The notes: generated from the sequence alone by a model not told the origin. A DNA stretch of 64,000 nucleotides from a virus (IMGVR_UViG_3300021368_000002); one strand, 5' to 3'. Shown: positions 1,398 through 47,256, counted from the first letter of the stretch. Numbers and translations: made by a program.

Positions 1398-1412
1398 TTT
1401 TAATGTTATAAT
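1384..1412 (+). promoter_or_regulatory. sigma70-type promoter with extended -10, probably giving a leaderless hldE mRNA
   Basis: TTGACG (1384-1389), 17-nt spacer, TATAAT (1407-1412) preceded by TG at 1404-1405. The ATG lies at 1418 with no SD sequence upstream. Confidence 0.8.
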
Positions 1413-1417
1413 AAGAT

Positions 1418-12163: not shown

Positions 12164-12171
12164 TATTTATC
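12164..12171 (-). promoter_or_regulatory. T4-late-like promoter GATAAATA
   Basis: Overlaps the carbamoyltransferase stop codon, 18 nt upstream of ATG 12146. Confidence 0.5.
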
Positions 12172-22200: not shown

Positions 22201-23508
22201 TGTTGCACCTACTAGATTCCAAAATGTACCATTAGAATCCAAGTCCGGTCTATTGCTTGCATTATCTGAAGTATGGTTTTGTTGAGCTACATAAGCGTTG
22301 TCGCTATATTTAACAAGATCGCCTATTTTGTATGCAGTAGCATCTGCCCAGTCGCCCTGCCATGCAAAACCTTCGTTTAGTTTGCTCCAATATGTTGTGT
22401 TTGGTGGTTCTTGTCCTGTGCTATCTGCTGTTGCAAGATATGTGTATCCATTTACTCGGACAACATCGCCCACTTTGTATGCTGTAGCAACATCCCAATC
22501 ACCTTGTAGGTTAAATCCTGTAATATATACGTCCCAGTCAGTAGTAGCAGTTGAAGGTGTACTACCTGAATGGTTTGTTTTTGCAACATATGTATATCCA
22601 CCGTACGATACAATATCTCCAGGTTGATAAACAGTTGCTACGTTCCAGCTATCTTCAAATTCTAAACCAGGTAAGAAAACTTCCCAATTAGATTGATCTG
22701 TTTGGAATAAACTTGTGCTAGTGTGGTATGTTGTACAAATCCAAAGACTTGGGCCGTTTTTAACAATGTCGTTTACTACATATCTTGTGTTTTGCTGCCA
22801 TGCTGATCTATAATTAATACCTTGATGATAAACATTCCAATTTGCAATATCATTTTCTAATCCTAAAGCAGCATCAGATGTTGATGTGTGTCCTGTGATA
22901 GCAATATAGATAAACCCGTTATATTTTACGATGTCATCTTTCTTGTATCTAGTTGATATTGCCCAATCACCTTTCCAATCAATTCCTGGAGTGAATTCAT
23001 TCCAATTAGCAATATCATCTTCTAAACCATCAGTAACAGTTTCGGCACTAGTATGCGCTGTTGCACATATGTATGTTGTACCGCCATACTTAGCAATGTC
23101 GTTAACTTTATATTTTGTGTTTATTGTCCAAGCGCCAGTATATGAAAGCCCTTCAGCAAAAATATCCCACTTAGACTGATCGTCTTCTAAGCCTAGTGCA
23201 TTTGTAGCAGCAGATGTGTGTCCTGTGTTACAAATGTAAATGTATCCGCCGTTTCTAACAATGTCGTTAACTTTAAAATATTTGTTAACTACCCAGTCGC
23301 CTTCCCATGTTAGACCGTCGCCGAATTGTTGCCATTTAGGTTGAACATCGTTTAAATCAGTTTCTAGGTTTGCAGCACCTGTGTGTGCAAGTATACATAT
23401 GAAGGTTTTACCTCCATACTGTACAATATCATCTCGTACGTACTCAGTTCCTGTCGCCCAGGCACCTTTCCAAATAAATCTAATTCTACCAAGTTTAAAC
23501 TCAGCCAT
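19240..23508 (-). CDS. Large tail/baseplate fibre protein (~1422 aa): 8 CBM5/12-like repeats, helical C-x-RD insert, pectin-lyase-like beta-helix
   Basis: Repeats W...T.Y...DIV.YGG..YIC...HTS......W; TTDGDILYY..RLPIG..GQVL; GIRNCTL.GL; SPYIQNVSTFG; SIVANDFTQILSDGIG. ATG 23508 preferred; an in-frame GTG lies at 23517. Confidence 0.75.
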   Translation of the reverse strand: MAEFKLGRIRFIWKGAWATGTEYVRDDIVQYGGKTFICILAHTGAANLETDLNDVQPKWQQFGDGLTWEGDWVVNKYFKVNDIVRNGGYIYICNTGHTSAATNALGLEDDQSKWDIFAEGLSYTGAWTINTKYKVNDIAKYGGTTYICATAHTSAETVTDGLEDDIANWNEFTPGIDWKGDWAISTRYKKDDIVKYNGFIYIAITGHTSTSDAALGLENDIANWNVYHQGINYRSAWQQNTRYVVNDIVKNGPSLWICTTYHTSTSLFQTDQSNWEVFLPGLEFEDSWNVATVYQPGDIVSYGGYTYVAKTNHSGSTPSTATTDWDVYITGFNLQGDWDVATAYKVGDVVRVNGYTYLATADSTGQEPPNTTYWSKLNEGFAWQGDWADATAYKIGDLVKYSDNAYVAQQNHTSDNASNRPDLDSNGTFWNLVGATAEENVLTTDGDILYYSGAGPTRLPIGDPGQVLKVDTAGTGVEWDYFGLVDNVYYVSPQGTDSPAPTYGITADRPWLTVAYACSQILNATTRVNAKYLLDQNIDFIAAETVEWVDYQIANAIAPFTGAFTYDKTKCLRDMKRIVKHVGYDISHGGNVETRKAAQSYFTTAGASYVAGQETETVAAINYSLDVVAAVLGNTPPATNYQTENSVATPVTQVIDVAYTAETDAESTYDSLVSHITAAITAGNLSSLPAEQVIHNTLYVKTGTYAEALPISVPSHTAIVGDELRSTRITPDGDSLTENMFYVRNGCGIRNCTLAGLTGTLGAANSYGTSRPSAGAYVSLDPGEGVDDRLVWIHNKSPYIQNVSTFGTACIGLKVDGDLHAGGNDSIVANDFTQILSDGIGYWVTNLGRSELVSVFTYYNHIGYLAENGGKIRATNGNNSYGDFGSVAEGIDTTETPITGTVNNYYAEAIINSVFTDGSRILALEYENAGVNYTTASYSFVGEGIGASVSAVNTRTNGVFAVQLTNPANNYGGADYTTALNNAQSGTSTTITISNTDTANSADYVGMAIYIEDGVGVGQYAYIDTYNAGTKIATVKKMSDDTAGWDHLVPGTAIETTLDQTSNYRIEPRVTFADPVTGTTARGRAKVAGDKIFKIVIIEPGTGYDPASPPTMTITDPNNTVDVPHTVRVGSGVLAQPTFADRGTGYETASADVTGDGYADILQSGKYVYVENLTDEPQPGANIQIAGDSTIYKLVQLFELGGSGPYTARLQLSPEIPVDGEPAHAAAVTHRIRYSQVRLTGHDFLDIGTGNFTQTNYPGIPLQNPTPANETVEGGGGRVFYTSTDQDGNFRVGDLFTVEQATGTATLDADNFSVSGLQELQLGSVSLGGTSATIKEFSTDGTFAADSDEIVPTQRAIRTYINSQIGGGAATLNVNTLVAGVVQISGNTITTTDSSGITIDKPINFEAGLSGTPLALQYFLNS
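22200..23495 (-). repeat. Eight ~48-52 aa CBM5/12-like (chitin-binding-type) repeats; eight more at ~26950-28650
   Basis: Visible periodic W-x-G-x-W....Y...D(I/V)V.Y.G..Y.C/A...H..S....W pattern in both paralogs. Coordinates approximate. Confidence 0.8.
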
Positions 23509-23550
23509 CCGGTTCACTCTCCCCTAACTGGCGTTATACAGTTATTTATC
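23509..23550 (-). promoter_or_regulatory. Late promoter GATAAATA (23543-23550) plus conserved leader TTAGGGGAGAGTGAACC (23511-23527)
   Basis: The 17-nt exact match at 47214-47230 sits at the same distance from the ATG. Confidence 0.8.
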
Positions 23551-23558
23551 ACTTTCCA

Positions 23559-26500
23559 CTACTTAGCTGTGAAAAGGTTTTGTTGTAGTCCCACTCCTGA
23601 CATTCCTCCAATAGCAGTGACAGGTGCTGTAACTTTCAAAGACGTGCTTTCGCCCGACGGTAACAATCCTATTGTTTTATTTTGTATTTGAACGTCTCCT
23701 GCAATAAGTGTGTTAGCATTAACAACAGCACCACCACTTGAAATACGTGCTTCAAAATATCCTGCAATCGCTCGTTGAGTAGGCACAATATTGTCGCTAT
23801 TAGCAACAAATGTTTGGTCTTTTGAAAATTCTCTAACAACAGCACTTGTACCGCCTAATACAATACCACCTAATACAAGCTCATCTAATCCAGATAAGTC
23901 AAACTGGCTTGCACTAATTGTCACAACACCAGTAGCTTGGTCAACTTTAAACAGTTCGCCAACTCTAAAGTTACCATCTTGATCTGTTGATGTATAGAAT
24001 ACTCTACCACCGCCTGAACCAACTGTTTCTTGGAACTGTCGAGGTGTATTTTCACTTGTGTATCCAAATACATATCTATTAGGATATGCAGTTTCTGTAA
24101 AGTTACCTGTGCCTATATCTAAGAAGTCATGTCCTGTTAATCTTATTTGACTATATTTTTGTCTAATTTCTACTTGCGTGTCATGTTGTGGAGCAGTATT
24201 AGTATCTAAATTTGGAGTAATTTGTAATCTAGCTGTAAGATTTGGTTCTGTACCCGTTACATCTTCAATTTTTTGTATACTAAATTGTGCTCCTGGTAAT
24301 GATCCAAATGTAAGAGCATCACCTGGACCAGGAATTCTTAAAAGATCTTTAACAAATATAATACCACTGCTTGGGAATATATCTGCATATCCATCTCCTA
24401 ATATTTCTACAGATGCCCGTGTATATTCGATACCGCCACTAGTTAAAAACGGTTGTGCTAAAACGCCATCGTTTACTCTAAATTGATACACAGCATCTAT
24501 AGTTGAGTTTTGATCGTAAATTATTCCCTCTGGCAGAGTGTTATACCCAGCACCTGGATTTACAATATTAATCTGGTCTAAGCTCTGACTTCTCACACTA
24601 CATCTTGCAATAGCAGGTGTACCATATGTAATAGGAGTAATAGTGCTTGCACTACTGTTATTGGCAGGAATGTAATAGTGCTGCCCTGTGCATGAAATCA
24701 AATTAACTGCTCTAACGTCAACACCTCCAGTAGGAGTAAGTGGATACCAATTAATTGCATCAACACTAGCAACTGTTGCACCTGTATTTGCCATAGCAAA
24801 ATATAATCCTTGTTCACCTGTTACATACCATGTAGCAATACTTGTTTCTGTAAGATTACTTGGATTTGGTTTAATGCTTTCTTGTAAATTAAATACAGGT
24901 GTTTGATCACCTGAAACATGGGCAACTACAGTTCTTGCCGGATTAACAGAAGTTGAGTCTCTAACCATTGCTACAAATGATCTCGGTCCACCATCAAAAT
25001 CTGTTACAATGTAATTAGCAGGTAAAGGTAATCCTGACTGATTGTTACCTTGTATCCATGAACTTCCACTATCTTTTGATTCGTAGATATTTCCGTTTGT
25101 ATCGCAAACCATCCAATAATCGCCAGATACTCCTACAAAATTAAACCCAGATCCTAATCCAGTTGTTGATGTAGTCCAGCTGCTTCCGCCATCGGTAGAT
25201 ACATAAATGGCATCTGCTGACGGATTAGTAACCATAACAACATTACCTTGTGCTTTTATGTCGCTAAATGCTGTTCCTGGTATTGTGCCTGCGCTCCAAT
25301 TTATTCCATCTGCTGATGTTTTACTATTTCCACTTGCGCCTATTGCAATAAATTTGTCATTTACCCAAACACATCCTATCCAGTCATCGGAGTCAGAAAC
25401 TGATGCATTTGTCCAACTTGTACCTCCGTCTGTACTGTATGAAAACACACTGCCTTGAACACTTGTTAAAACTACAGTATTTTCACCATCAGTAGCAGAA
25501 GCACCAATTCTCTTAAAACTACCAGTAGATACAGATCCAGCGTTAAATCCAGGTTTGTTTATGTCTAAATATGGCTCTATAGAATATCTTGTAGTTCCAT
25601 CTAAACTAGATTCTATTGGTTTGCCTTCTATTATTGTATTCCATCCCGGTTGACCCCATATGTTAGTAATTGTTGCAACTTTTGTGGAAAAATCATATGT
25701 ATCGATTTTGCCCCATTGACCTGCACCTATACCTTTAATAATCCATATACACATACCTACATAATCATTAGACACATTTTCGTCAGCTGCTGCTAATGTA
25801 ATTTGTGTTTCAGATCCAGCTTGAGCATTATTTTCAATTCTTCTAAATCCAAAACCACCAGCTGTTGAAGAGTCGTCAGCATCTAATAAACGTACTTGAG
25901 ATACTCCGCGTTTTCTAAAATCGTTATAGGTTAAGTTAGCACTTACCCCAGACCCTGTAACTGTTGTAGTTGCGTTTGAATATTCTTGTCCTGCGTGTTC
26001 GTACACCAACCCTACAACCCTATCATCATTGTCAATAATTGTAGCTTCAACTAGTGCTTCACTTGTTCGGTTATCTAAAACTGCACTAATTGCTGATTCT
26101 GCTGTGTTCGATCCTTCTGCAACAGATCCATAATCTCCGTAGGAATTATTTCCGTTTGTAGCTCTTAACTTACCGCCGTTTGTAGCAAGATAACCTATAT
26201 GGCAATAGTATGTAAATACAGAAACAAGTTCAGACTTTCCTTCTTCATTTGCCCAATAACCGATACCATCACTTAGAATTTGTGTAAAGTCGTTAGCAAC
26301 CATTGACTTGTTACCACCATCGTGTAACTCTCCATCAATTTTCATACCTATACATCCTGTTCCAAATGTTGTAACATTTTGGACGTAAGGAGATTTACTA
26401 GTAATCCAAACACTTTGGTCTGTAGGTCCTGTTCCAGGATCTAGTGCAACATATGCTCCTGCATTAGGTCTACGTGTAAAATATGAATTTTGTTCACCTA

Positions 26501-28673
26501 ATTCACCATTTAATCCTTGTAAAGTACAATTTCTTAACCCTGTTCCATTATGCATTCTAAACATATCACTTAGTTCAAATGTTGGAGCAGGTTTTATTAC
26601 TGTGCTTCTAAGTTCGTCACCTACTATAGCAGTATCTGTAGGAACAACTATAGGAAGAACTTCTGAATATGTACCCGTTTTTACAAATATTGTTGCAGGG
26701 CGTCTACCTGCATCAGCACCAACATATTCACAAGCATATTTAATTGTTCTAAACGGACTTCCTTCAGTTCCTGCTGTAGGAATATCTTGCCCTCGTAGCG
26801 AAACATAATATGTATTATCGGCGAAATTTAACGAATCCCAAGTAACAATATTTGTGTTATCTACTACTAATGTAGATCCTACAGAACCTACAGGTTTTCT
26901 TACATCTGCTCCGTCTTCTCTAGTTTTAAGGTCTCCCCTGTTGTTTAGAACGTTTGTTGCACTGCCTTCATAAAAAGTTTCCCAGTAACTGCCGTCGTCA
27001 ACATTAGGAGCAACTAAACTACTATCATCTGACGAGTGAGATTGTATACATACATATGAACTGCCTGCAAAACCGACTACATCGCCTAAAGTATAATATG
27101 TTGCTTCTTGCCAAGGGCCTTTCCAATCGTTACCTGTAACAATTTTAACCCAACTTGAACTATCACTAGTAAATGTAATACCATTAGTGTCATACATTCC
27201 TGAATGGTTAACACATACAATGTAAATAGTACCTGCGTTTGGAGCAACTAATTCTATACTTCTTGAGGTTTCAGCATCGTCAAAGTTATCAAAATAATCT
27301 TCTCGTGTGCTTGCCACTCCGTCTATTCTATATGTAACATTTGTTTCATAATAATTGTAACTACCGCCATCATGATGACCGTTTTGTGTTGTGCTAAAAT
27401 ATATTGCGTGTCCTGAATTTGTAATACTTGATTGATCAAAAACGTAAGTATTACCAGCTACTAAATTAAGTGCAGGGGATTGAGTATTATTTACAAAATA
27501 CTTATTAGAAGAATTTACGTTTTCTACTGTAACTGTATAAGTTATAGTCTGAATAGGTTCAAAAGGATAAGAACTTGTATCTTGGATTGCACTAAAAATA
27601 TTACCGCCTTCACGAATTGTATCTCCTGAATAATAATATGTATTTTCAGTCCATTGACCTCTCCAATTATAACCTTCAACTACGATTTCCCAATTTGGAC
27701 TTCCTGCAGGTAAGTTACCTAAATTGTTATCTAGCAAACTTCTATAACTATATCCACCATACATAACAATATCACCATACTGATATGTTGTTAGTGAATT
27801 ATATAATGTTTCGTATCCTGTTCCTGGAATATAAAGTTGAAATGCGCCTTGTGGAAACTCTGTAGTGTTTGTAAGTGTGATACATTTTTGGAGACTACTT
27901 CCTACTCTTACAACATCGCCTACAAGATAAGTTGTATTGGCTGTCCATGTGCCCATGTAACGAACACCATCTAAAATTAATTCCCAGTTGCTACTATTGC
28001 CTTCTAAACCTATTAACGCACTTGCATCACTTGAATGTCCTACTGTACATCTGTATAGTCTTGCACCATATCTTACAATATTATCTTTATAATATCTAGT
28101 TGCTACGGTCCAGGTATTTCTCCATTGTGACCCTCTGTTTACATAGGTCCAATTTACAATATCGTTTTCTAAGCCTTGCGAAGCATCTGACGCAATATGT
28201 CCGGTAGTACAAATATATGTTGATCCGTTGTAATTTATTACATCACCTAATTCATACTGTCTACCTGCAACCCAAAAATCTCGCCAGTCAAAAGTTGTAG
28301 CGACAAAATCCCAATAGTCTATATTTTCAACTAGTCCGTCTATAGATAAATCAGCACTTGTATGACCTGTATTTGCTTTATATAAAGTTGCACCATACTT
28401 GACTATTTCGTTTTGTTCATACTTTGTTTGTGTTGTCCACAAACCTCTCCATTTTTGTCCATCTGACATTAATTCCCAGCGTGGTTCTGGATTGCCATAT
28501 TGATCTACTGCGTTTAAATCATTATCAAATGTGGCCGGATCAGCAATGTGTCCTATTAAACAAACGTAAATTTTACCGCCATTTGATACAATATCGTCTT
28601 GATTGTAAGATATGCCAGATCCGTGTGGACCTCTCCAAACATATTTAAATCGTGTAATATTAAACTCTGCCAT
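23559..28673 (-). CDS. Large tail/baseplate fibre protein (1704 aa), paralog of 19240-23508, with cupredoxin-like insert and BNR/Asp-box propeller
   Basis: Same CBM-like repeats, beta-helix and C-terminal YSQIRLTGHDFLDIGTGNFT..YP...GGGRVFYTSTDQDGNFRVG. Also has Asp-boxes YSTDGGTSW, STDGGSSW, SKDSGSSW and GH...CVNHSGM. Confidence 0.75.
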   Translation of the reverse strand: MAEFNITRFKYVWRGPHGSGISYNQDDIVSNGGKIYVCLIGHIADPATFDNDLNAVDQYGNPEPRWELMSDGQKWRGLWTTQTKYEQNEIVKYGATLYKANTGHTSADLSIDGLVENIDYWDFVATTFDWRDFWVAGRQYELGDVINYNGSTYICTTGHIASDASQGLENDIVNWTYVNRGSQWRNTWTVATRYYKDNIVRYGARLYRCTVGHSSDASALIGLEGNSSNWELILDGVRYMGTWTANTTYLVGDVVRVGSSLQKCITLTNTTEFPQGAFQLYIPGTGYETLYNSLTTYQYGDIVMYGGYSYRSLLDNNLGNLPAGSPNWEIVVEGYNWRGQWTENTYYYSGDTIREGGNIFSAIQDTSSYPFEPIQTITYTVTVENVNSSNKYFVNNTQSPALNLVAGNTYVFDQSSITNSGHAIYFSTTQNGHHDGGSYNYYETNVTYRIDGVASTREDYFDNFDDAETSRSIELVAPNAGTIYIVCVNHSGMYDTNGITFTSDSSSWVKIVTGNDWKGPWQEATYYTLGDVVGFAGSSYVCIQSHSSDDSSLVAPNVDDGSYWETFYEGSATNVLNNRGDLKTREDGADVRKPVGSVGSTLVVDNTNIVTWDSLNFADNTYYVSLRGQDIPTAGTEGSPFRTIKYACEYVGADAGRRPATIFVKTGTYSEVLPIVVPTDTAIVGDELRSTVIKPAPTFELSDMFRMHNGTGLRNCTLQGLNGELGEQNSYFTRRPNAGAYVALDPGTGPTDQSVWITSKSPYVQNVTTFGTGCIGMKIDGELHDGGNKSMVANDFTQILSDGIGYWANEEGKSELVSVFTYYCHIGYLATNGGKLRATNGNNSYGDYGSVAEGSNTAESAISAVLDNRTSEALVEATIIDNDDRVVGLVYEHAGQEYSNATTTVTGSGVSANLTYNDFRKRGVSQVRLLDADDSSTAGGFGFRRIENNAQAGSETQITLAAADENVSNDYVGMCIWIIKGIGAGQWGKIDTYDFSTKVATITNIWGQPGWNTIIEGKPIESSLDGTTRYSIEPYLDINKPGFNAGSVSTGSFKRIGASATDGENTVVLTSVQGSVFSYSTDGGTSWTNASVSDSDDWIGCVWVNDKFIAIGASGNSKTSADGINWSAGTIPGTAFSDIKAQGNVVMVTNPSADAIYVSTDGGSSWTTSTTGLGSGFNFVGVSGDYWMVCDTNGNIYESKDSGSSWIQGNNQSGLPLPANYIVTDFDGGPRSFVAMVRDSTSVNPARTVVAHVSGDQTPVFNLQESIKPNPSNLTETSIATWYVTGEQGLYFAMANTGATVASVDAINWYPLTPTGGVDVRAVNLISCTGQHYYIPANNSSASTITPITYGTPAIARCSVRSQSLDQINIVNPGAGYNTLPEGIIYDQNSTIDAVYQFRVNDGVLAQPFLTSGGIEYTRASVEILGDGYADIFPSSGIIFVKDLLRIPGPGDALTFGSLPGAQFSIQKIEDVTGTEPNLTARLQITPNLDTNTAPQHDTQVEIRQKYSQIRLTGHDFLDIGTGNFTETAYPNRYVFGYTSENTPRQFQETVGSGGGRVFYTSTDQDGNFRVGELFKVDQATGVVTISASQFDLSGLDELVLGGIVLGGTSAVVREFSKDQTFVANSDNIVPTQRAIAGYFEARISSGGAVVNANTLIAGDVQIQNKTIGLLPSGESTSLKVTAPVTAIGGMSGVGLQQNLFTAK

Positions 28674-28686
28674 ATTCTACTTCTTC

Positions 28687-29055
28687 CTAAACATCGGTTG
28701 GATATTCGTAACCTTGGTTAATTCTAACAACAAATTCGCCGTCATCGTTTATGTAATAATATACGTTTCTATCATCCCAACGGAATTGTTCATAATTTAA
28801 ATTCCTATAAACTATATTATGATACGTATCTCTACCTTCAAAAAAGTCTTGTCCTGGTTGGAAATTAGGGTAATCTTGGCTAGGATCATCACCAACGTTA
28901 TTAATTTGAATACCGTCGGCTACGTCAAGTTGATCAACTTTTGCAAAATGTAAATATCCGTCTGGGTCTCTTCTAAGTCCATAAAAATATCTTGCACCCT
29001 GTAAGGAATCTTGTAAAACTCCTACATCATTACCTACATAAAAATCTGACATCAT
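28687..29055 (-). CDS. Conserved hypothetical virion protein (122 aa), paralog of 39995-40501
   Basis: RYFYGLR....L..KVD.LD..DGI.IN..GD...QD(Y/F)P.F.PG.DFFEG.D...Y.NL.Y.Q..(W/F)DDR..YY..D.GE..(V/L)R is shared. The start may be the second ATG (29052). Confidence 0.7.
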   Translation of the reverse strand: MMSDFYVGNDVGVLQDSLQGARYFYGLRRDPDGYLHFAKVDQLDVADGIQINNVGDDPSQDYPNFQPGQDFFEGRDTYHNIVYRNLNYEQFRWDDRNVYYYINDDGEFVVRINQGYEYPTDV

Positions 29056-29071
29056 TTATCTCCAGTTATTG

Positions 29072-29079
29072 TATTTATC
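29072..29079 (-). promoter_or_regulatory. T4-late-like promoter GATAAATA
   Basis: Intergenic, 17 nt upstream of ATG 29055, SD GGAG follows. Confidence 0.6.
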
Positions 29080-29089
29080 AAGTTACGTT

Positions 29090-32000
29090 TTATAGATCGC
29101 CTGTATTTGTGCTAGGATATGCTCTATTTGGTCCCCATATAATTCTTACTGCGCCGTCACCGCCATCACCGCCTCTATGTGTACTACCGTTAACTGTTGC
29201 TGCGGATGCTGCACCGCCTCCTCCTCCATATGAACCGCCATAACCGCCATTTGTTGCGTTATAGCCGCCTGGATTAGAGCCACCGCTATTACCTCCAGAT
29301 CCTCCACGACCTCCAGACCCAGCACCTCCTGCTGCACCTGATGACCCTTCACCTAACAATCCAACACCGCCTCCTGCAGGTGCACCTACTAATCCATAAG
29401 TTTGTCCGCTACCGCCGCCACCACCTCCGGCTCCATTAGTACCCGAAGTTGTGCCATACCCGCCATCACCGCCGCGGCCGCTATAACCGCCAGCGCCACC
29501 ACCGCCACCGCCCCAGCTATTAGGCGCCGCAACACCACCACTTTGTCCTCCACGACCTCCGAATCCGTTACTTAGAGGACTGGTACTATATATGTAATTT
29601 CCACCTTTTGAACTACTGGTACTTGTGTAGACAACATTTCCGCTTGCTGCAAGGCCGCCTTGTCCGCCACTAGCCCATAGGTAGCCAGTCCCTTGATAAT
29701 CTATTCTAGATTCACCACCTCTAGCTCCATTTCCAGTACCACCAGTACCGCCTGCTCCTACAGTAATGTCTAAAACTTGTCCGCCAGTTACAGGTATTGA
29801 AACAGCAAATCCAAGGTTGCCTCCGCTGCCGCCAGACCCAGAATACGATCCTGTGCTGCCGCCGCCACCTGCTCCGCCGCCACCTACTACTACAGCACTT
29901 ATTGAAGTAACACCTGTTGGTACAGTCCAAGTAGTTGTTCCTGGAGTAGTAAATGCAACTTGTCCTACTGGATTAGCGGTAATTGTTATATCACTTGATG
30001 TGGCTCTAGTAATGCTCGAATCTATTTCATCGGTTATTTTTACTGTAAATGTTTCATCTGTGTTGTCTGCATCATCAGATGTTCCTACATTAATAACAGC
30101 AGAATTATTGTAAACATAAATTTGTTTGCTGTCTGGATTAGGAGTTTTTATATTTAAAATATTGCTCATTCCATAATGGTATTCACAAATATAGTAAAGA
30201 GTGTCAGGAGCAGTCAACGGAACTGTAAATACAACTGCTCCAGATTCAGCACCATTTCCTGTTACTCCGTTGCTGAACAAACTACCCGTTCCTGTTCCTC
30301 GTGCAGTTTTTATGTAAAAAGGATGCCCTGACGCACTAATATTGAATGTGTACGTAAATCCTCTGTATAATGTCATTTCTGGATTATTTACACTAGACAA
30401 CTCTTCACCGTTAAATGTATAAGCACTTGCACCACTATTAGTTACAGCATATGTAAACGAAGTTTGAGCATTTGCAAAATCGCTCTGTGTAGTACCTGTA
30501 CTCGAAGCTAACCAGTTTAATTTTGTTCCATCATTAATGTTAGTTGTTGTTAGATTAATTGCTAAACTATTACCTTCCAATACACTAGTACCATTTGGAT
30601 AAGAAAATGTATAAGTAGGAGCAACATTATTATCAGTTATCGTAACAGTAACTAGATTGCCATTTGTAGGATATGTATATCCGCCACTTAAATTGTATAT
30701 TTCAAAAATATTATTTGTGTCACCTATATAACTTGTTGCATCCGTAGTAGGTACCCCAATAGTGACAGATGTTTGTCCAGCATTAAATTGTCCAGTTCCG
30801 CTTGATAAACTAATGCGCTGATCCCCTGTTCCTACGACTCTCCATGCAAATGTTGGTGTATCGGAATAATTTTCTACTCCGTCTACTGTGCTTGTTCTGG
30901 TAACTACAAGGCTAATACTATTACCTTCTTCTACAGAACTTTCAGCTACTGAAATCGACATTAGTTTTACCACTGCAAGAACATCTTGAATAGTAATTGT
31001 ACAAGTGTCCCCGACGATAGTATAGTTATTAGTTGCTGTTATTAACCTTAGAGTGTTTGTTGTATTAGTTTGGGCACCTGATTCTGACGAAATAGGAATT
31101 ACAATAGTTGCTGTAGATTCTCCAGATATAAAGTTTACAGTTCCTACATTTTGGCTTATTCTATCATCGTTAGCTGTAGTAATTCTCCAAGAAACAGAAG
31201 ATCCTTCATTAGGTGTAGCTGCAACTCCGTTGATTTTGTAAACTCTTGAAACTTCTATTGCAGTGCTGTTGCCTTCTTCTACTGTTTCAGTTGATGCTAC
31301 ACTAATTGACCTAAATACGTTATTTAAATTTAATGTTGCTGAAGAAGTTGAAATAGTATATTTAGGATCCGATATATTAGTTATGTTTATAGTATTAGTA
31401 GTTGAATCACTGTCGGTGTTACCTGCAGACATAGAAACGTTAAATGATGCTGTATTTTCTCCTGCAGGAATTACAACTGTTCCTGAAGTGGGCGAAATAC
31501 GACTATCTGGATTTGATATTGACCAACTAACTGTTATGTCATGATTGTTATTTACTATACCATTTCTAGTTGCTGTTCTAGAAACTGTAATTGCACTTGT
31601 AGTACCTTCGGTTAAGTTATACGAGTTAGCTAAAAATCCTGCCGTATATGTAGGAGGATTAGGATTTGCAGTTATTTCTATATCTACTGTAACTCCTGTT
31701 TGATTAGCAGTAAATAGATATTGATCGCTAAGACTTCTTGCACAAACTCTATAAGTTCCTACGCTATTTCCTACTTGTCCAACAGAGTCATCTAACACAG
31801 GTATACATAATGTTTTTGTTACAGTATTAGCAGATGCATCAGGTTTAAATTGATGAAGTAACCAACAAGTCCCTGTTGCATTTGTTGATAAACTTGAAGG
31901 AATACTTAATGTTGATCCGCGTGTGCTAACATTGTATTCAAAAGTTGGTGTATCGCTAGTATAATAAACAGTTCCTGGTTGAGATGTATTTTCGTACAAA

Positions 32001-34299: not shown

Positions 34300-34317
34300 T
34301 GTTTTATTCCTTTTATA

Positions 34318-34325
34318 TATTTAAG
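34318..34325 (-). promoter_or_regulatory. Late-promoter-like CTTAAATA
   Basis: TAAATA core overlapping the upstream stop, 19 nt before ATG 34299. Weaker match. Confidence 0.35.
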
Positions 34326-37484: not shown

Positions 37485-37492
37485 TATATTTC

Positions 37493-40002: not shown

Positions 40003-40501
40003 TTGGATCCTCGTTATCAAATTTCAAGTCTTTATTATCAAATGTAATTGTTACTAAGTCAAATGTAGGAAATACACTTAACTTTCTATAATCTTTTTGT
40101 GGAGGATTCAGCGGGACATCTGGTATTGTTATTGTTCCTTCGCCAATTCCTTGGAAAACTCTTAATGTAAGTTCTCCGTTGTCGTCTACATAATAATTAA
40201 AGTCTCTATCATCAAATTTATACTGACTGTAAATTAAATTTCCGTATCTAGTTTCATGAAATTCATCTATACCTTCGAAAAAATCGCTTCCTGGGATAAA
40301 ATGGGGGAAGTCTTGATCTGCATAATCTCCGATTCCGTTAATTACAATTCCGTCATCACTATCTAAACTATCAACTTTACCTAAAATAAGTTCACCTTCT
40401 TCGGCACGTAGCCCGTAGAAAAATCTTTGCCCGGCTGTTTGTTTTGCAACAATCCTCGGATTATTTCCTACATACCATTTAGTTGCTTTGCTACGAGCCA
40501 T
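39995..40501 (-). CDS. Conserved hypothetical virion protein (168 aa), paralog of 28687-29055
   Basis: See the shared motifs under 28687-29055. Overlaps the next start by 8 nt (ATGGCTAG). Confidence 0.7.
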   Translation of the reverse strand: MARSKATKWYVGNNPRIVAKQTAGQRFFYGLRAEEGELILGKVDSLDSDDGIVINGIGDYADQDFPHFIPGSDFFEGIDEFHETRYGNLIYSQYKFDDRDFNYYVDDNGELTLRVFQGIGEGTITIPDVPLNPPQKDYRKLSVFPTFDLVTITFDNKDLKFDNEDPNG

Positions 40502-40508
40502 GATGATC

Positions 40509-40838
40509 CTACAATATTTCTACATAACTTACAATACAATCTACACTAGCTGCAAGATTGCTTTTAACAGCTAGTTGGTTGTCATTTGCTAATATAAGTT
40601 TTTCACCACCATTTATTGCTCTTAAACTACTATTTGGTGGTAGAGGTACTTGTTTTAAATAAAATACTTCTGTATCTGTGCTATCAGTTACAGTTACGTC
40701 TACAAAAAGATTACTTTCACTTACATTAGCTAAACTTATACCAATTACAGTAAGTTTACTGTTATTAGTATTATCTAAAACAGTTTGCTTTGTTGTTCCT
40801 ATATCTTTAAATGTTGCATTTCTAAAATATGTTGCCAT
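40509..40838 (-). CDS. Small virion adaptor protein (109 aa), paralog of 18909-19229
   Basis: TVIGISLANV......VDVTV......V.YLKQVPLPPNSSL......KLILA.DNQL.V.S....SVD.IVSYVEI. Confidence 0.6.
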   Translation of the reverse strand: MATYFRNATFKDIGTTKQTVLDNTNNSKLTVIGISLANVSESNLFVDVTVTDSTDTEVFYLKQVPLPPNSSLRAINGGEKLILANDNQLAVKSNLAASVDCIVSYVEIL

Positions 40839-40842
40839 TTTT

Positions 40843-43800
40843 TTATCCCATAATTAACGCTGCTGCGAACGCTTGATCTTCAGATGCTTGTTGTGTTATT
40901 CCACCTGTACTAGATGCTGCGACAGGCGTCCATGCACTTCCGTCCCACTGTAAATAATCTCCAACTTGTTTTCCTGTTGTATCAATATCTCCAATTTGAT
41001 CTAAAATAATACTAACATTAGCACCATCAATAGTACCAGGCTGCCATCTATTATTTGCATCATTCCAAACAAGTGCTTGCGCATCATTTGCACCAACTTG
41101 TTCAAGCTGGTGTGTTTTTATTAAACTATTTACTGCATCTATCAATAATACCGAGTCATCTCCGAACACACTACCTTTTAGATCGCCGATCATATCATCG
41201 CCTGCGCTGTAAAATCCTACATCATCAGTAAACGAAGATAGCAATGTAGGAACATTCAATAGATCGCCGTAATCTCCACTAAATGCTACATTAGCAAAAG
41301 AAGGAATATTACTTAAACTTGTATAGCTTAATTGACCAAAAGAAGTATTGCCTGATCCGTCTGTTATTAATGCCTCGCCGACATTACCGTCTGCTGTTGG
41401 TAAGTTGTATGCATTGTTAATTCTAATTGAACCATCAATACCACTTATTTTAATTCTTTCAGAGGAAAGATTAAGAACATTATTATTTGCCGATCCTTGG
41501 TCACCAGTTTTAAATATTATGTCACCGCTTGCTGCATTACCTGTACTTGTACCAGCTTCGATAGTCAAGTTACTGCCGCTTACATTGGTTCCTGATGAAT
41601 TAGGAGTTTTTATTGTTCTATTAACAGACCCAGTAGTAGTTGTTGCTGTTTCGTTTAAATAGATATTTCCGTCTGCAAAAATGTCAGTTGTATTTGCAAG
41701 AACAATACTGTTAGCATTTAATTCAATTTGAGGTACATTTGCTTGGTTAGCATATTTTAACGCAACACCTTGAGAGAATATTTCATTCTGCATAGTAAGC
41801 GTACTATTAATTGTAATAGCACTATTAGATGTGCCTCCTCTTGCTGCAACATCGCCAAATGTATCTGTTAAACTTGCACTTGTTAAATATCCGCTTGTAT
41901 TATTAAAGCTGATTACACCGGTACTTTGATCAAAACTAATATCACCAGTGCCGCTAATTGCAGTTAGAGTAATTACGCCTATGTCATCATTAAGATCGCC
42001 TAAGTCTGTTGCAATCTTTTGATAGGCACTTCCATCGTTTGTAAATTCCCATTCACCGTTTGTTTCATTCCAACGTAGAGCAACATCAGTTTGGTTACCC
42101 CTGTTAATTTCAATACCAGCATTTTCGGTAGGAGCAGTAGCTGATCCCACATCACTGTTTAGCGTAATTAAGTTGTCGCCAACATTTAACGTAGTTGAAT
42201 TAACAGTTGTTGTTGTACCGCTGACTGTTAAGTTACCATTAACAGTCATGTCATTGACTGTAATGTTATTTGTTGTAGTGTTGCCGCGGCCTGTTACACT
42301 GTCAAGTGTATCGGTTTCATTAATATTTGCACTTGTTAAGTATCCACTTGTGTTGTTGAAACTAATTTCACCTGTTGTGCTGTTATAACTAATGTCGCCA
42401 ACACCGCTTACTAATCCACGTACTTCGGCATCTGTTCTCTCAGTGAAAGATATTGTACCAGTTGCACTATCGTATGATAAATCACCTGACGCACTTATCA
42501 ATCCACGTACTTCTGCATCAGTACGCTCTGTAAAACTAAACGTACCTGTTGCATTATCATATGATAAGTCGCCACCAGCTGCAAACAATGCTCTTACTTC
42601 TGCATCAGTACGTTCTGTAAAACTATATGTACCGCTTGCATTGTCATAAGTTAAATCACCGCCAGCTGATAAATCAGTAAGAGTAATAAAGTTTGCGTTG
42701 TTTGTTAAATCACTAGTATCAACTGCAAATACTTTGTAATCTGTACCGTTATTAGTGAATGTCCACTGTGTATTAGATTCGTCCCATTGTATTTTTACAG
42801 TGTTTTCAACACCACGTCTTACAGCAATCCCTGCATCTTCTGTAGGATTACCAGTAACATCGCTGTTTAGTGTTATTTCGTTATCTGCAACATCTAAAGT
42901 TGTAGTATTAATTGTAGTTGTTGTACCACTAACTGTAAGATTTCCGCTCACTGTCATATTATTAACAGTAATATCGTTAGTTGTAGTGTTACCTCTACCG
43001 GTTACACTATCTAGTGTATCTGTTTCTGAATAACTTGTTAAATATCCTGTGGTATTATTAAAACTTATAACACCAGTTGTATTGTTATATGAGATATCTC
43101 CAGTGCCGCTTATAAGTCCACGTATTTCTGAATCAGATCGTTTTGTATAAGACATAACACCTGTTGAAGCATTATATGTAAGATCTCCACCAGCACTTAT
43201 AAGTCCACGCACTTCTGCATCAGTGCGCTCTGTAAACGACACAACTCCTGTTGCACTATCGTATGATAAATCACCACCTGCGCTAATTGCACCTCTTGCT
43301 CTAGCAGTAGTAAAGTAAAGATTAGATCCTGATTCGCTAATATCACCTGTTCCTAAAACAACAGCACCTGTTTTAGTATTAACACTCGAAACTGCTTGAG
43401 CACCAGCAGTAAAGCTAATCACACCAGTTGTAGAATTATATGAAATATCTCCACTTGCACTTATTAATCCTCTAATCTCAGCATCTGTTCTTTCAGTGTA
43501 ACTAAATTGTCCAGATGTAGAATTATAAGAAAGACTGCCTGCTGCGCTAAACAAACTTCTAATATTTGCATCTGTGCGCTGTGTCGGAGTATTAATTAAG
43601 TCAGTATAATCTCCTGTAGTAGCAACAGTTGCTAGAGTAGGAGTACCGCTTACTTCTGTGTATGCAACTTTTCCAAATGTTACAGCACCGCTACCATCAG
43701 TAACCATTGCTTGTCCTGATGTACCATCACTTGAAGGTAAGCTATATGCTGCGTTAATTGTAACTGCACCGTTGCTACCGCTTATCTTTAAACGTTCAGA

Positions 43801-46800
43801 TAGCGCATTTGTTGTAGATCCTGTTGAACCTGTGCTACCTGTTTTAAATATTATGTTACCACCGGCACCTGTACCAGTCGAACTACCTGCTTCGATACTT
43901 AAATTATTACCAGCAACGTCAGTACCTAATGCATTTGCAGTTGCAATTTTCTTTGTGTCACCGCCACTTGTATTAGTTTGCTGATTTGCTAACCATAAAT
44001 CACCATCTGAATAAAGTTGGTTGATATAATTAAGTTGAATGTAGCCATTGTACATTCCCACATTTGTTTTATTAGTACCTACTTCAGTTTGTAAAATAGT
44101 ACCGTTAGTAAATATTTCATTACCTACAGTCATATTTCCGCTAAACGTTACATTATCTGTTGTAGTTGCACCTCTGCCAGTAACAGTTGCTAAGGTATCT
44201 GTTTCAGCAGTAAGATATCCTGCTCCGTTAGAAAAACTTATAACACCTGTAGAGCTATCGTACGAAATATCTCCAGTGGCACTTATACCAGCTCGTGTAA
44301 TAAAGTTACTATCGTTAGTAAATGTACTTAAATTTGCACCAACAAGTGCAACGTCTGTTCCGCCAACTGTTAATCCACCAAATTCTGCAGAATTTGTTGT
44401 TGTTGCTCCTCGCCCTGTAACCGTATCAAGCGTGTCAGTTTCAGTATAACTTGTTAGATAATTGCTAGTATTGTTAAAACTTATTTGTCCTGTTGCACTA
44501 TCATAAGAAATATCACCAGTTCCGCTTATTCCTGCTCTAGTAATATATCCTGTGTTATTATTAAAAGTTATGATACCTGTATTTGTGTCATAACTAATAT
44601 CACCTGTAGCACTTATTCCACTTCTTGAGATAAAATTACTATCGTTAGATAACTGACTTACTGCATTGGCAAGCACATAATATGTAGAACCATCATTTGT
44701 AAATTCCCATTTATCGCTTGTTTCATTCCAACGTATATCAACATTAGTTGATGTTCCACGTTCTACTATAAATCCTGCATTTTCGCTAGGTGCACCTGTA
44801 ACATCTGAATTTAAAACTATTTGATTGTCTGCTACATTTAAGGTTGCAGTGTTTATTGTAGTTGTAGTGCCACTAACTGTTAAATTACCAGAAACAGTCA
44901 TGTCGCCTACAGTAATATTATTTGTTGTAGTTGCACCTCGCCCAGTTACACTATCTAGTGTATCTGTTTCTGTATAATTTGTTAGATATCCACTATTATT
45001 TGCAAAACTTATAACACCTGTGCTATTATCATATGAAATATCACCTGTTGCACTAATTAATCCTCTTACTTCTGAGTCTGTACGCTCAGTAAAGCTAATT
45101 ACACCAGTAGAATTGTTATAACTTATACTTCCACTTGCACTAATAAGCCCACGTACTTCTGAATCTGTACGCTCAGTAAAGCTAAATGTTCCGTTAGTAT
45201 TGTTATAACTTAAACTTCCAGTAGCACTTAAACTTGCTAATGTAATAAAGTTTGTATCATTTGTAAAACTACTTAAAGTTGTTGGAGTAGAATAACTTAT
45301 AACACCAGTTGAACTATTATAACTTAAATCTCCAGCAACACTTATTGCTGCCCTAGCTCTTGTATTAGTAAAATATAAGTTTGTAGAACCTTCAGATAGA
45401 TCATCTGTTGTTTTTGAAGCGAAATCTGTATCAAAACTGTTAGATACATAAGGATCTGCAGGTTCCCAGTACTGATTTGCATTATCCCATACTAAAAATT
45501 GTCCGTTTGCCGGTGTTGTTGTATAATTTACATCAGTTAAATCAGCAATACTTGCAGCAGCTATTCTTGCATCTGCTTCTGTATCTGTATATTTTGTAAT
45601 ACTGAATACACCCGTTGTGCTATTATATGCAAGATCTCCACCTGCACTAACTAGGCCTCTTACCTCTGCATCTGTTCTTTCAGTAAAAGATATAACACCA
45701 GATGAGTTGTCGTATGAAATATCACCACTTGCACTAAGATCAGCAAGTTTTATATATCCTGCATTGTTAGTTAGATCACCTAAGTCTACAGGTGCGGTGT
45801 AACTTATAACACCAGTGGTGCTATTATAACTTATATCGCCTGTTGCACTAATCAGTCCTCGTACTTCTGCATCTGTGCGTTCTGTAAAACTAAAGATTCC
45901 AGTTGCACTATCATAAGATAAATCTCCAGTTGCACTTACTGCTGCCCTAACTCTTGCATCTGTGTAATATAAATTTGTGCCTTCGCTAAGATCAGTTGTA
46001 GATTTTGCTGCAAATGCTGTGTTAAATCTAGCCTGTGTATAGTATAAGTTGTTTGTTCCCTCAGCAAGGTCATCTGTTGTAACACCACTAAGGTCTAGAT
46101 TTGAACCAGTATTAGATTGAATACGTGCATCAACTCTTGCATCTGTGTAATAAAGATTTGTACTACCTTCACTAAGTGCATCTGTGTCGTGATTTGAAAT
46201 ATCACTTACTGTACCTGTAACATCACCTGTTAAATTTCCAGTAAATCCTGTGCTTGCTGTAACAGTTGTACCTGTAATTGCAGCAGCAGATGTGCCACCT
46301 ATAATAGTTCCGTCTATTGTACCGCCATTTATATCTACAGTGGCAAATGTGCTTGTTCCAGAACTAGTAATATCGCCTGTAACATTACCAGTTACATTAC
46401 CTGTTAGATCACCTGTGACATTACCAGTTACATTACCGGTGACATTACCTACTAAATTAGTTGCTAAATCTTTATTTGCTGTCCATCTATCATTTGTTGA
46501 GTCGTATGTAAAGGTTGCATTTGCACCATCTACAGTCAAACCTGCTCCATCTGCTGCCGCAGCATTTGCTGCACCGCTTGCAACAACTATATTAAGGTCA
46601 TCAACAGTCAGTGTTGTGCTATTAAGTGTTGTTGTAGTGCCGTTTACAGTAAGATCGCCTTCAACAATCAAACTATCGTCAATAGTTACAGTTGTGCCTG
46701 TTCCTGTAGCTGTGATTGTATCTGTTAAAACAGTGCCTGTTGCAGTTACATTAACAAATGTAGGACTATCAGTAGTTTCAATTCCCTGTCCAATGCTAAT

Positions 46801-47211
46801 TTGCCCTGTAGTATTGTCATAGGTGATGCCAGTGCCGCCGCTTAGGCTTGTAAGAGTGATGTAACCAGTTGAATTATTAAAACTAAATGTTCCGTTTGTG
46901 CTTTCGTAGCTTATATCGCCTGTAGCACTGAACAACCCACGGACTTGTGCGTCTGTTCTTTGTGTAAAACTAAAAACACCTGTTGACGAGTTATATGTTA
47001 AATCGCCTCCAGCACTTAAACTACCTAATGTTATGTAGTTTGCATCGTTAGTTAATGAGCTTACATTGTCAGCATCTGTTAAAACAGTATCTGTACCAAT
47101 GTTTATTGTAAATCCTGAAGCGAATGCAGCGGTATCATTATCAATATCAATTGAGAAATCGCCCGGCCCTACCTGCAGACCTTTTTTGATTTTAAAATCA
47201 CTAGTTGCCAT
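40843..47211 (-). CDS. Long repetitive tail fibre (~2122 aa)
   Basis: About 12 FTERTDAEVRGLIS..GD.SY units, 5 ETDTL..VTGRG.TTT units, TDDLSEG.TNLY(F/Y)T units and GNVT runs. ATG 47211 preferred; an in-frame GTG lies at 47220. Confidence 0.75.
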   Translation of the reverse strand: MATSDFKIKKGLQVGPGDFSIDIDNDTAAFASGFTINIGTDTVLTDADNVSSLTNDANYITLGSLSAGGDLTYNSSTGVFSFTQRTDAQVRGLFSATGDISYESTNGTFSFNNSTGYITLTSLSGGTGITYDNTTGQISIGQGIETTDSPTFVNVTATGTVLTDTITATGTGTTVTIDDSLIVEGDLTVNGTTTTLNSTTLTVDDLNIVVASGAANAAAADGAGLTVDGANATFTYDSTNDRWTANKDLATNLVGNVTGNVTGNVTGDLTGNVTGNVTGDITSSGTSTFATVDINGGTIDGTIIGGTSAAAITGTTVTASTGFTGNLTGDVTGTVSDISNHDTDALSEGSTNLYYTDARVDARIQSNTGSNLDLSGVTTDDLAEGTNNLYYTQARFNTAFAAKSTTDLSEGTNLYYTDARVRAAVSATGDLSYDSATGIFSFTERTDAEVRGLISATGDISYNSTTGVISYTAPVDLGDLTNNAGYIKLADLSASGDISYDNSSGVISFTERTDAEVRGLVSAGGDLAYNSTTGVFSITKYTDTEADARIAAASIADLTDVNYTTTPANGQFLVWDNANQYWEPADPYVSNSFDTDFASKTTDDLSEGSTNLYFTNTRARAAISVAGDLSYNSSTGVISYSTPTTLSSFTNDTNFITLASLSATGSLSYNNTNGTFSFTERTDSEVRGLISASGSISYNNSTGVISFTERTDSEVRGLISATGDISYDNSTGVISFANNSGYLTNYTETDTLDSVTGRGATTTNNITVGDMTVSGNLTVSGTTTTINTATLNVADNQIVLNSDVTGAPSENAGFIVERGTSTNVDIRWNETSDKWEFTNDGSTYYVLANAVSQLSNDSNFISRSGISATGDISYDTNTGIITFNNNTGYITRAGISGTGDISYDSATGQISFNNTSNYLTSYTETDTLDTVTGRGATTTNSAEFGGLTVGGTDVALVGANLSTFTNDSNFITRAGISATGDISYDSSTGVISFSNGAGYLTAETDTLATVTGRGATTTDNVTFSGNMTVGNEIFTNGTILQTEVGTNKTNVGMYNGYIQLNYINQLYSDGDLWLANQQTNTSGGDTKKIATANALGTDVAGNNLSIEAGSSTGTGAGGNIIFKTGSTGSTGSTTNALSERLKISGSNGAVTINAAYSLPSSDGTSGQAMVTDGSGAVTFGKVAYTEVSGTPTLATVATTGDYTDLINTPTQRTDANIRSLFSAAGSLSYNSTSGQFSYTERTDAEIRGLISASGDISYNSTTGVISFTAGAQAVSSVNTKTGAVVLGTGDISESGSNLYFTTARARGAISAGGDLSYDSATGVVSFTERTDAEVRGLISAGGDLTYNASTGVMSYTKRSDSEIRGLISGTGDISYNNTTGVISFNNTTGYLTSYSETDTLDSVTGRGNTTTNDITVNNMTVSGNLTVSGTTTTINTTTLDVADNEITLNSDVTGNPTEDAGIAVRRGVENTVKIQWDESNTQWTFTNNGTDYKVFAVDTSDLTNNANFITLTDLSAGGDLTYDNASGTYSFTERTDAEVRALFAAGGDLSYDNATGTFSFTERTDAEVRGLISASGDLSYDSATGTISFTERTDAEVRGLVSGVGDISYNSTTGEISFNNTSGYLTSANINETDTLDSVTGRGNTTTNNITVNDMTVNGNLTVSGTTTTVNSTTLNVGDNLITLNSDVGSATAPTENAGIEINRGNQTDVALRWNETNGEWEFTNDGSAYQKIATDLGDLNDDIGVITLTAISGTGDISFDQSTGVISFNNTSGYLTSASLTDTFGDVAARGGTSNSAITINSTLTMQNEIFSQGVALKYANQANVPQIELNANSIVLANTTDIFADGNIYLNETATTTTGSVNRTIKTPNSSGTNVSGSNLTIEAGTSTGNAASGDIIFKTGDQGSANNNVLNLSSERIKISGIDGSIRINNAYNLPTADGNVGEALITDGSGNTSFGQLSYTSLSNIPSFANVAFSGDYGDLLNVPTLLSSFTDDVGFYSAGDDMIGDLKGSVFGDDSVLLIDAVNSLIKTHQLEQVGANDAQALVWNDANNRWQPGTIDGANVSIILDQIGDIDTTGKQVGDYLQWDGSAWTPVAASSTGGITQQASEDQAFAAALIMG
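42380..45950 (-). repeat. ~25 aa ERTDAEVRGL-IS-GDISY-GVISF shaft repeats, 10+ copies in this span
   Basis: Recurrent DNA such as acgtacttctgcatcagtacg(c/t)tctgtaaaact. One further copy lies near 46940 and one in the next fibre near 57170-57200. Confidence 0.85.
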
Positions 47212-47254
47212 CTGGTTCACTCTCCCCTAAAGTGGCTTATATAATGTATTTATC
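47212..47254 (-). promoter_or_regulatory. Late promoter GATAAATA (47247-47254) plus conserved leader TTAGGGGAGAGTGAACC (47214-47230)
   Basis: Second copy of the element at 23509-23550. Confidence 0.8.
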
Positions 47255-47256
47255 GG

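Follow-up and report, generated by a model that had tools for sequence, protein, structure and literature searches.

Introduction

Several described systems come close to the element reported here, a short conserved hairpin in front of two giant fibre genes in a 64,000-nucleotide (nt) stretch from an uncultured T4-like cyanomyovirus (IMGVR_UViG_3300021368_000002; "the window" denotes this whole stretch). The split ribosome-binding site of T4 genes 25 and 38 (Nivinskas, Malys; PMC3014915) contains a small conserved, cis-acting hairpin in the initiation region of a late virion gene, placed between the Shine-Dalgarno (SD) sequence and the AUG, where it shortens the spacing. The gp43 operator of T4 and RB69 is a hairpin by the ribosome site of an early gene, with conserved loop letters and a varying stem, through which a known binding protein represses its own synthesis (PMC3014915). 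In T4 gene e and I-TevI, a segment upstream of the late promoter pairs with both the SD and the AUG, which restricts translation to the late transcripts. The leader of Bacillus thuringiensis cryIIIA, the STAB-SD of Agaisse and Lereclus in 1996, is reportedly highly complementary to the 3' end of 16S ribosomal RNA (rRNA) and stabilises the messenger RNA (mRNA). In Cyanophyceae, the anti-SD UCACCUCCU is used with the extended SD AGGAGGUGA, GUGA included (PMC10783764). Finally, PeSL cassettes, which accompany modular shuffling in T4-type phages, combine conserved promoter and terminator motifs and flank the variable genes of hyperplastic regions in T4-like genomes (PMC2839356, PMC4122927).

The present element resembles each of these systems in some respects. 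It shares with the gene 25/38 site a small conserved cis-acting hairpin in the initiation region of a late virion gene; here, however, the SD lies in the loop, the stem has only 2–5 base pairs (bp) and it is the loop sequence that is conserved. A covariance model of the element found no copy in the T4 genome, and the element lacks the split-site layout of gene 25/38. As in the gp43 operator, the hairpin stands by the ribosome site and keeps its loop letters while the stem varies, but the gene is a late structural one, the binder is putative and the SD is in the loop. A sequestering hairpin of the gene e/I-TevI type was considered and rejected, both stem arms being downstream of the promoter and the SD unpaired in the loop. 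The GGAG and GUGA of the loop match AGGAG-GUGA of the cyanobacterial extended SD; unlike the general form, the element has a conserved bulged A, an A-A mismatch, a hairpin setting and a link to one gene family. With STAB-SD it has in common a leader complementary to 16S rRNA, which in three phages is separate from the initiating SD, whereas it is mostly the sole SD (in both window copies too) and keeps a set distance from the AUG rather than from the 5' end. PeSL promoters are of the early type. The element goes with a late promoter, has a 2–5 bp hairpin without a U-run, appears to be selected as RNA and normally occurs once per genome, and so departs from the PeSL cassettes, while being, like them, a compact, conserved module of regulation found where genes of variable regions adjoin, before unrelated genes and with signs of transfer.

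The element is apparently undescribed and belongs to a kind already known, the structured translation-initiation region of a phage late gene. Neither strand of the window gave an Rfam match at gathering score, and the motif string had no match in the literature open to searching; we regard the element as a credible candidate for a new RNA family. Resemblances to the 3' half of the sarcin-ricin loop, to the tip of 16S helix 45 and to the RegB site GGAGRAYARAA (PMC3014915) were set aside, since the partner strands or enzymes that define them are absent or beyond the reach of sequence comparison. The reading we favour is that a conserved hairpin presents the SD to the ribosome, that extended pairing with the 16S rRNA tail gives two fibre genes a shared translational setting, and that one of the two copies (site 1) was acquired. 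To this statement as a whole we would assign a probability of about one half.

The two leaders and their late promoters

An earlier note on this DNA, made from the sequence alone, described a 17-nt leader, TTAGGGGAGAGTGAACC, before two unrelated giant fibre genes. Both leader strings read as quoted there, on the minus strand, and the 17-mer matched the window exactly twice, even when up to three mismatches were allowed (chance expectation 0.09; none of 100 shuffles gave two matches). The relevant features, all on the minus strand, were as follows (aa, amino acids).

23543–23550, minus: late promoter GATAAATA of site 1, 9 nt after the stop codon of the paralogue 23559–28673
23511–23527, minus: site-1 17-mer TTAGGGGAGAGTGAACC, with the core at 23524–23511 and the loop GGAGAGTGAA at 23522–23513
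23532–23528, minus: site-1 flank GCCAG; GG follows the 17-mer and the ATG is 23508–23506
19240–23508, minus: site-1 fibre-like gene, 1,422 aa, N-terminus MAEFKLGRIRFIWKG, seven CBM_5_12 repeats, PHROG 9851
23559–28673, minus: paralogue of the site-1 gene, 1,704 aa, N-terminus MAEFNITRFKYVWRG (begins MAEF), leader without the element
47247–47254, minus: late promoter GATAAATA of site 2, directly after the stop of the gene 47257–53448
47214–47230, minus: site-2 17-mer TTAGGGGAGAGTGAACC, with the core GGGGAGAGTGAACC at 47227–47214 and the loop GGAGAGTGAA at 47225–47216
47227–47226 and 47215–47214, minus: site-2 stem, GG with CC, in the conserved core
47236–47231, minus: site-2 flank GCCACT; AG follows the 17-mer and the ATG is 47211–47209
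40843–47211, minus: site-2 fibre gene, 2,122 aa, N-terminus MATSDFKIKKGLQV, PHROG 9729 and 697
47257–53448, minus: gene upstream of site 2, its stop codon directly before the site-2 promoter

From promoter to start codon, site 1 (23550–23503) reads GATAAATA-actg-TATAAc-GCCAg-TTAGGGGAGAGTGAACC-gg-ATGGCT, and site 2 (47254–47206) reads GATAAATA-catta-TATAA-GCCAct-TTAGGGGAGAGTGAACC-ag-ATGGCA; the two elements are 23.7 kilobases (kb) apart. When the covariance model, built from 121 related copies, was run on the window, only these two sites were found, with 29.1 bits for site 2 (E = 1.2e-5) and 27.2 bits for site 1 (E = 4.3e-5); the next match scored 13.8 bits (E = 0.2).

The octamer GATAAATA sits 34–35 nt before each ATG. 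The late-promoter consensus of cyanomyoviruses is NATAAATA and the T4 form is TATAAATA (PMC2984593); at both sites an octamer of the NATAAATA type, the hallmark of a T4-type late promoter, was found shortly upstream of a virion gene. Since GATAAATA is the cyanomyovirus form of the T4 late promoter, the shared string comprises a late promoter and the 5' leader of a late message, which the earlier note had not recognised, nor had it seen how widespread the element is. T4-type late transcripts start about 6 nt downstream of the promoter and depend on gp55, gp33 and gp45. With the start predicted from the promoter, each copy lies within the 5' untranslated leader of a message begun at a T4-type late promoter. 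The window has far fewer copies of ATAAATA than expected (12 versus 31 ± 5), and seven of its nine minus-strand copies are just upstream of the ATG of a minus-strand gene. Further minus-strand late promoters, at 29078, 18912, 14939, 12170 and 11732, are followed by shorter leaders with plain SDs.

The proteins behind the two leaders do differ, as had been claimed: one has 1,422 aa with CBM_5_12 repeats, the other 2,122 aa with no Pfam match, and they belong to other PHROGs. The gene at 23559–28673 and the site-1 gene are true paralogues (identities of 54%, 46% and 36% in the three best BLASTP segments), and the leader of the former does not carry the element; the late promoter at 29078 serves this gene by way of a small gene at 28687–29055. 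The earlier view is borne out in that gene duplication did not leave the element as a by-product: it is a cis-acting signal, under selection, at the start of translation.

Distribution of the element among phages

A search of relatives for the 17-mer, a check that the earlier note had named, was productive. The exact 17-mer was present in nine IMG/VR contigs, four with orthologues of the site-2 gene and five in which it precedes a third gene type beginning MANNKKFVVKNGL. The relaxed query GGGGA-N-AGTGAACC, followed after 0–3 nt by ATG, matched at least 120 IMG/VR contigs; the core may also be written GGGGA-N-AGUGAACC, and both window copies are local forms of it. Among the 121 matches listed for the relaxed query, about 115 directly precede an open reading frame. 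Proteins beginning M-A-x-(N/D)-K-(N/D/K)-F-[VI]-[VI]-K-N-G-L (K-N-G-L type) follow 118 of 134 distinct copies, the element belonging to the one gene family of fibre proteins that start M-A-x-N-K-N-F-V-V-K-N-G-L, and [AT]AAATA occurs within 40 nt upstream in 114 of the 134. The site-2 N-terminus MATSDFKIKKGLQV is likewise of the "F-x-[VI]-K-x-G-L" type, the usual downstream partner of the element. Some carrier genes are short (78–300 aa) and many are very long, and the fibre genes are extremely diverse behind their constant N-terminus.

Because the large sample of at least 120 contigs was ascertained with the core fixed, the invariance of the core has to be judged on two samples of leaders gathered via the protein and thus unbiased toward the motif. 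One consisted of nine cultured Kyanoviridae, eight of which carry the core, or a variant close to it, ahead of this gene (Bellamy, S-SM2, S-B05, SynMITS9220M01, P-TIM68, S-SCSM1, S-CAM7 and ACG-2014f). The other consisted of 54 distinct IMG/VR leaders, with the exact core in 39 and a loop-keeping variant in 7 more; it was built from a subfamily of the K-N-G-L type, since the K-N-G-L N-termini taken all together diverge too far to be aligned for a search of loci. Five complete genomes each had the core once.

The element was also found beside a tape-measure gene, beside other sheath and portal types and beside a podovirus-like internal virion protein, and is therefore not confined to T4-like phages. 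A collection of 185,579 bacterial genomes gave three matches, all on metagenome-bin contigs, which we read as indicating that the element is not prophage-borne. The covariance model gave no convincing copy in T4, Syn9, S-PM2, HTVC008M or S-SSM7; a near-match in S-PM2 was rejected as an ordinary AGGAGG with a GTG start. The motif was absent from roseophage genomes with related fibre domains. Comparison of the leader with cultured phages by blastn returned only chance matches of 17–20 nt, the element being too short for BLAST. A complementary trans-acting RNA encoded by the phage was rejected, as no reverse-strand copy of the 14-mer was present in nine complete genomes. One contig (L220:1050–3503, minus strand) has two hairpin copies on adjacent genes, namely a gene for a 795-aa K-N-G-L fibre and the next gene, which begins MTVIRPNSVAGINSI.

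A conserved loop on a covarying stem

Counts for loop and stem were taken from an ungapped alignment of 121 distinct copies. The ten loop letters GGA-N-AGTGAA (GGA-N-AGUGAA in RNA) were invariant except for N, which was G in about two thirds. The SD is inside this 10-nt loop, which is closed by a stem of 2–5 bp. The covariation score over the five pairs closing the loop was 0.338, compared with 0.116 in shuffled alignments (reached in 0 of 500) and 0.00–0.16 for slid partners, the one control for relatedness applied to these counts. At the third stem pair we counted GC in 61 copies, AU in 23, UG in 8, UA in 7, CG in 2 and GU in 2, with 18 unpaired; the fourth pair showed six pair types and was unpaired in 46 copies. 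The G-U pairs point to RNA of the sense strand. Paired insertions also left the loop intact: GGG-loop-CCC became GGGU-loop-ACCC in four contigs and GGGG-loop-CUCC in two, and S-SCSM1 has the stem GGGG..CCCC where P-TIM68 and contig L293 have GAGG..CCUC. RNAalifold and single-sequence folds gave the same hairpin, with small energies.

Conservation therefore reaches beyond the SD, through a nearly invariant loop and a covarying stem, where the earlier note had said that its proposal would fall if it stopped at the SD. The element is very likely to be a conserved cis-acting RNA element of the translation-initiation region. The GCCA/UGGC helix proposed in the earlier note is possible and stacks below the window hairpin in the minimum-energy fold; this fold is no stabler than shuffled sequences, and one side of the helix is fixed by the Met-Ala codons.

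Two variant forms were seen at this fibre gene. In S-CAM7 (L253:274–299) and ACG-2014f (L254), the loop variant GGAAUGUGAA contains ATG-TGA, a start followed by a stop, and the annotation places the start of the fibre gene at a GTG right behind the stem. An alternative leader, which we call class B (the hairpin form being class A), stands at the orthologous fibre gene in 8 of the 54 distinct leaders (contigs L335, L340, L336, L318, L307, L320, L265 and L329, at positions ~375–400 of each) and in Synechococcus phage B3 (L252:270–300), whose genome has no class A copy anywhere. It reads aaaaGGT[TA]GGCGCTCTCC[AT]CC-n-ATG and exposes no SD; its anti-SD-like run CUCUCCACC (CUCCUCCUU in B3) folds back on an upstream AAGGUNGG. 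Class B shares the 9-mer GGTGGAGAG, as reverse complement, with one class A variant, a pattern that may reflect either inversion or convergence on an anti-SD-like sequence.

Predicted pairing with the 16S rRNA tail

RNAduplex paired both window sites with 13 of 14 nt of the 16S 3' tail at -16.6 kcal/mol, compared with -4.0 to -9.2 kcal/mol for 21 other window genes; the tail sequence was taken from textbook knowledge and PMC10783764 and may differ from that of the actual host. The duplex consists of GGAG:CUCC, a bulged A, GUGA:UCAC, an A-A mismatch and CC:GG. In the window the GGAG is 10 nt before the ATG, so that 16S complementarity and a workable distance, the marks of an SD, are both present. 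As the Cyanophyceae SD includes GUGA, the GUGA part would be used in these hosts. A natural variant in contig L289, GUGAUCC, is the perfect complement of the tail. Among random 8-mers placed after GGGGAG, 1.3% reached -16.6 kcal/mol (P ~0.013).

In the mechanism that we favour, the loop would offer the 30S subunit an extended SD, whose GGAG and GUGA pair with the CUCC and UCAC of the 16S tail. The weak stem would open, and its flanking GG and CC would lengthen the duplex to 13 of the 14 tail nt. This pairing may set a characteristic rate of ribosome loading, perhaps with ribosome-dependent protection of very long messages, and both fibre genes would thereby share one translational setting late in infection. 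The donor of the site-1 copy would have been the leader of an ancestral-type fibre gene, and the route recombination or gene conversion.

Several observations weigh against this reading. A P of about 0.01 for the rRNA complementarity is only suggestive. The bulged A and the mismatched A (GUGA-A-CC), neither of which would pair with rRNA, hardly ever vary, which argues that more than anti-SD pairing constrains the loop. Where N is not G the canonical SD is weakened, and the start is then 2–3 nt from the loop instead of 5. The element is gene-specific, whereas a strong ribosome site alone would be expected on other abundant late genes too. Single-sequence folds of the window copies were no better than shuffles (z from -0.15 to +0.79), and these copies read UUAGG-loop-CCRGA, with A-G or A-A at the third pair, so that the window hairpin is marginal. 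In P-TIM68 (L247:269–300), S-SCSM1 (L251:269–300) and contig L293 (369–400), the hairpin lies 12–15 nt upstream, with a stronger stem of 4 bp, and a second GGAG is the SD; because the hairpin is kept apart from the working SD in these three phages, the element should have a role beyond being the SD.

Some of these same observations fit a translational operator, in which a protein would bind the invariant loop and block or recruit the ribosome, titrating both fibre genes; the fibre N-terminal domain (acting autogenously) and a host factor found in all hosts are the candidates. An invariant loop on a freely covarying stem is what characterises hairpins recognised by proteins, the gp43 operator of T4 and RB69 among them (PMC3014915). 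The conserved loop positions that cannot pair with rRNA, the persistence of the hairpin where a separate SD exists and the gene-specific, single-copy occurrence all suit an operator. So does the co-occurrence with the K-N-G-L N-terminus across T4-like, tape-measure-bearing, other sheath-type and podovirus-like phages, the fibre gene being the only gene that always accompanies the element. When a gene of another type carries the element, a K-N-G-L gene with the element is in the same window or locus in both cases examined (this window and L220). The binding protein is, however, putative: Pfam found no RNA-binding domain in the fibre N-termini, and to our knowledge there is no precedent for a fibre protein as an RNA binder. 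The close match of the loop to the anti-SD complement would also have to be a coincidence (P ~0.01). We consider the operator rather unlikely, but it is a serious rival to the reading that we favour.

Spacing between element and start codon

The distance from loop to start codon was 2–6 nt, most commonly 5, and 12–15 nt in a few phages, where a second GGAG lies between the element and the start codon; the stem ends 0–3 nt before the AUG. The distance from promoter to element varied from 2 to 34 nt. A fixed distance to the AUG together with a variable distance to the promoter indicates a role in initiation rather than in 5'-end protection.

This spacing bears on a STAB-SD-like alternative, in which a 30S subunit parked on the SD-like sequence near the 5' end would keep ribonucleases off the long fibre mRNA, regardless of whether that sequence is also the initiating SD. 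The high predicted affinity for the 16S tail and the great length of many carrier genes would suit such a stabiliser, as would P-TIM68, S-SCSM1 and L293, in which the element is apart from the working SD as in STAB-SD. Yet it is the start codon, not the 5' end, to which the distance is held; in addition, some carriers have only 78–300 aa and other giant genes of the window do without the element. A stabiliser is accordingly improbable in our judgement.

The earlier note had also offered a dual start, with an in-frame GTG three codons upstream giving an N-terminally extended isoform. The frame GTG-AAC-CRG-ATG is indeed open in both window copies. Across the 134 distinct copies, however, the GTG shares the reading frame only where loop and start are 4 nt apart, which is so in 21, while the main class has 5; the in-frame GTG is thus an accident of the 4-nt spacing of this lineage. 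Moreover, the GGAG ends 1 nt before the GTG, too close for an SD, and conservation of the protein begins at M-A. The dual start retains a negligible probability.

Origin of the second copy

Judged by the company the element keeps elsewhere, site 2, before a gene of the K-N-G-L type, is its ancestral (normal) location, and site 1 is a lineage-specific acquisition. In 47 contigs with site-1 orthologues (39–58% identity), the late promoter is kept with a plain GGAG leader, and the covariance model found no element in these 47 leaders. Both copies are present, about 25.3 kb apart, in three closer relatives, so the two-copy state has been maintained within the lineage. Site-2 orthologues with the same leader are carried by L345, L351 and L352. 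The retention of both copies makes the shared control of the two fibre genes, as put forward in the earlier note, plausible. The site-1 protein of the closer relatives (L152/L350) is 73% identical, and its leader has the core with other flanks (..GCCTATA-core-GA..).

The site-1 leader of the window, GCCA-G-17mer-GG-ATGGCT (23532–23503), matches the leader of the third gene type (MANNKKFVVKNGL, MANNKKF-type, L001/L346) at 29 of 30 positions. This match, together with the other flanks in the relatives, indicates that the leader was copied between fibre genes at least once, which accounts for the identity of the two window leaders; after the copying it was probably re-converted.

Such movement raises the possibility, also mentioned in the earlier note, that the element is a DNA-level junction at which homologous recombination swaps fibre cassettes, a late-gene analogue of PeSL cassettes. 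The leader has certainly moved, to judge by the 29/30 match to the L001-type leader against other flanks in the orthologous leaders of the closest relatives; the fibre genes downstream are extremely diverse behind a constant N-terminus; and the PeSL cassettes are a precedent (PMC2839356, PMC4122927). The identity, however, covers merely 14–17 nt and some patches. The loop is invariant across genera without shared flanks while synonymous sites of the adjoining codons vary, and the stem covariation and G-U pairs indicate selection on RNA. Direct repeats would favour deletion of the intervening 23.7 kb, yet the relatives keep both copies. When contigs of four DNA runs were compared with 46950–47550, two records from other samples bridged site 2 without a joint and no variant was listed at 47026–47271, which is weak evidence, the stretch being too short to be informative. 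We hold a junction function to be highly improbable. Because the loop is fixed across genera while adjacent synonymous sites vary, recombination would be the means by which the leader spread and is not likely to be its function.

The fibre region of the window

The window covers the fibre and baseplate region of the phage. Its nucleotide similarity to cultured phages is about nil; its carbamoyltransferase is 63–65% identical to those of Synechococcus phages Sf-FS3 and S-SSM7. CheckV completeness was 23–31% for relatives of 62–110 kb (the contigs behind L001, L003, L005, L007 and L008), from which the genomes of this phage group may be about 300 kb or more.

Giant fibre-like genes stand in a row at 3738–63998 on the minus strand, encoding 2,334, 1,422, 1,704, 1,426, 2,122, 2,063 and at least 3,491 aa. 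Within these genes are 12-nt periodic repeats that encode runs of G-N-V-T-G-type tetrapeptides (46337–46495, 60100–61400) and also repeats of ~87 nt. Genes for sugar or envelope modification lie beside the virion genes, at 954–3386 (plus strand) and 12167–13939 (minus strand); they comprise a NUDIX hydrolase, a heptose kinase/adenylyltransferase-like gene, a nucleotide-sugar epimerase and a Nol-like carbamoyltransferase.

Implications for fibre genes of marine phages

A wider reading is possible, although on balance doubtful: the decaloop hairpin may represent a novel class of cis-regulatory RNA in phages, one that accompanies the N-terminal attachment module of fibres in marine phages of unrelated lineages. 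Its mechanism would then be one undescribed for structural genes, either toehold-like capture of the whole 16S 3' tail or autogenous repression by the fibre N-terminal domain, coupling synthesis to assembly, and in the class B leader this switch would be set the other way.

Host range is decided by the tail fibres. In marine phages no genes vary more than those for fibres, which are often also the longest, and hardly anything is known of how their dosage is controlled. An RNA signal of 14 nt that keeps every letter, even as the proteins downstream of it become too different to recognise, offers a handle on this control, and it marks fibre genes in metagenomes. If the favoured reading is true, two unrelated fibre genes of the window share the same translational setting. 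The element is present in cultured phages with cultured hosts (S-SM2, Bellamy, P-TIM68 and S-CAM7), so that experiments are possible. For cyanobacteria, in which the use of SD pairing is debated, the element suggests a ribosome-mRNA or protein-mRNA interaction that can be tested.

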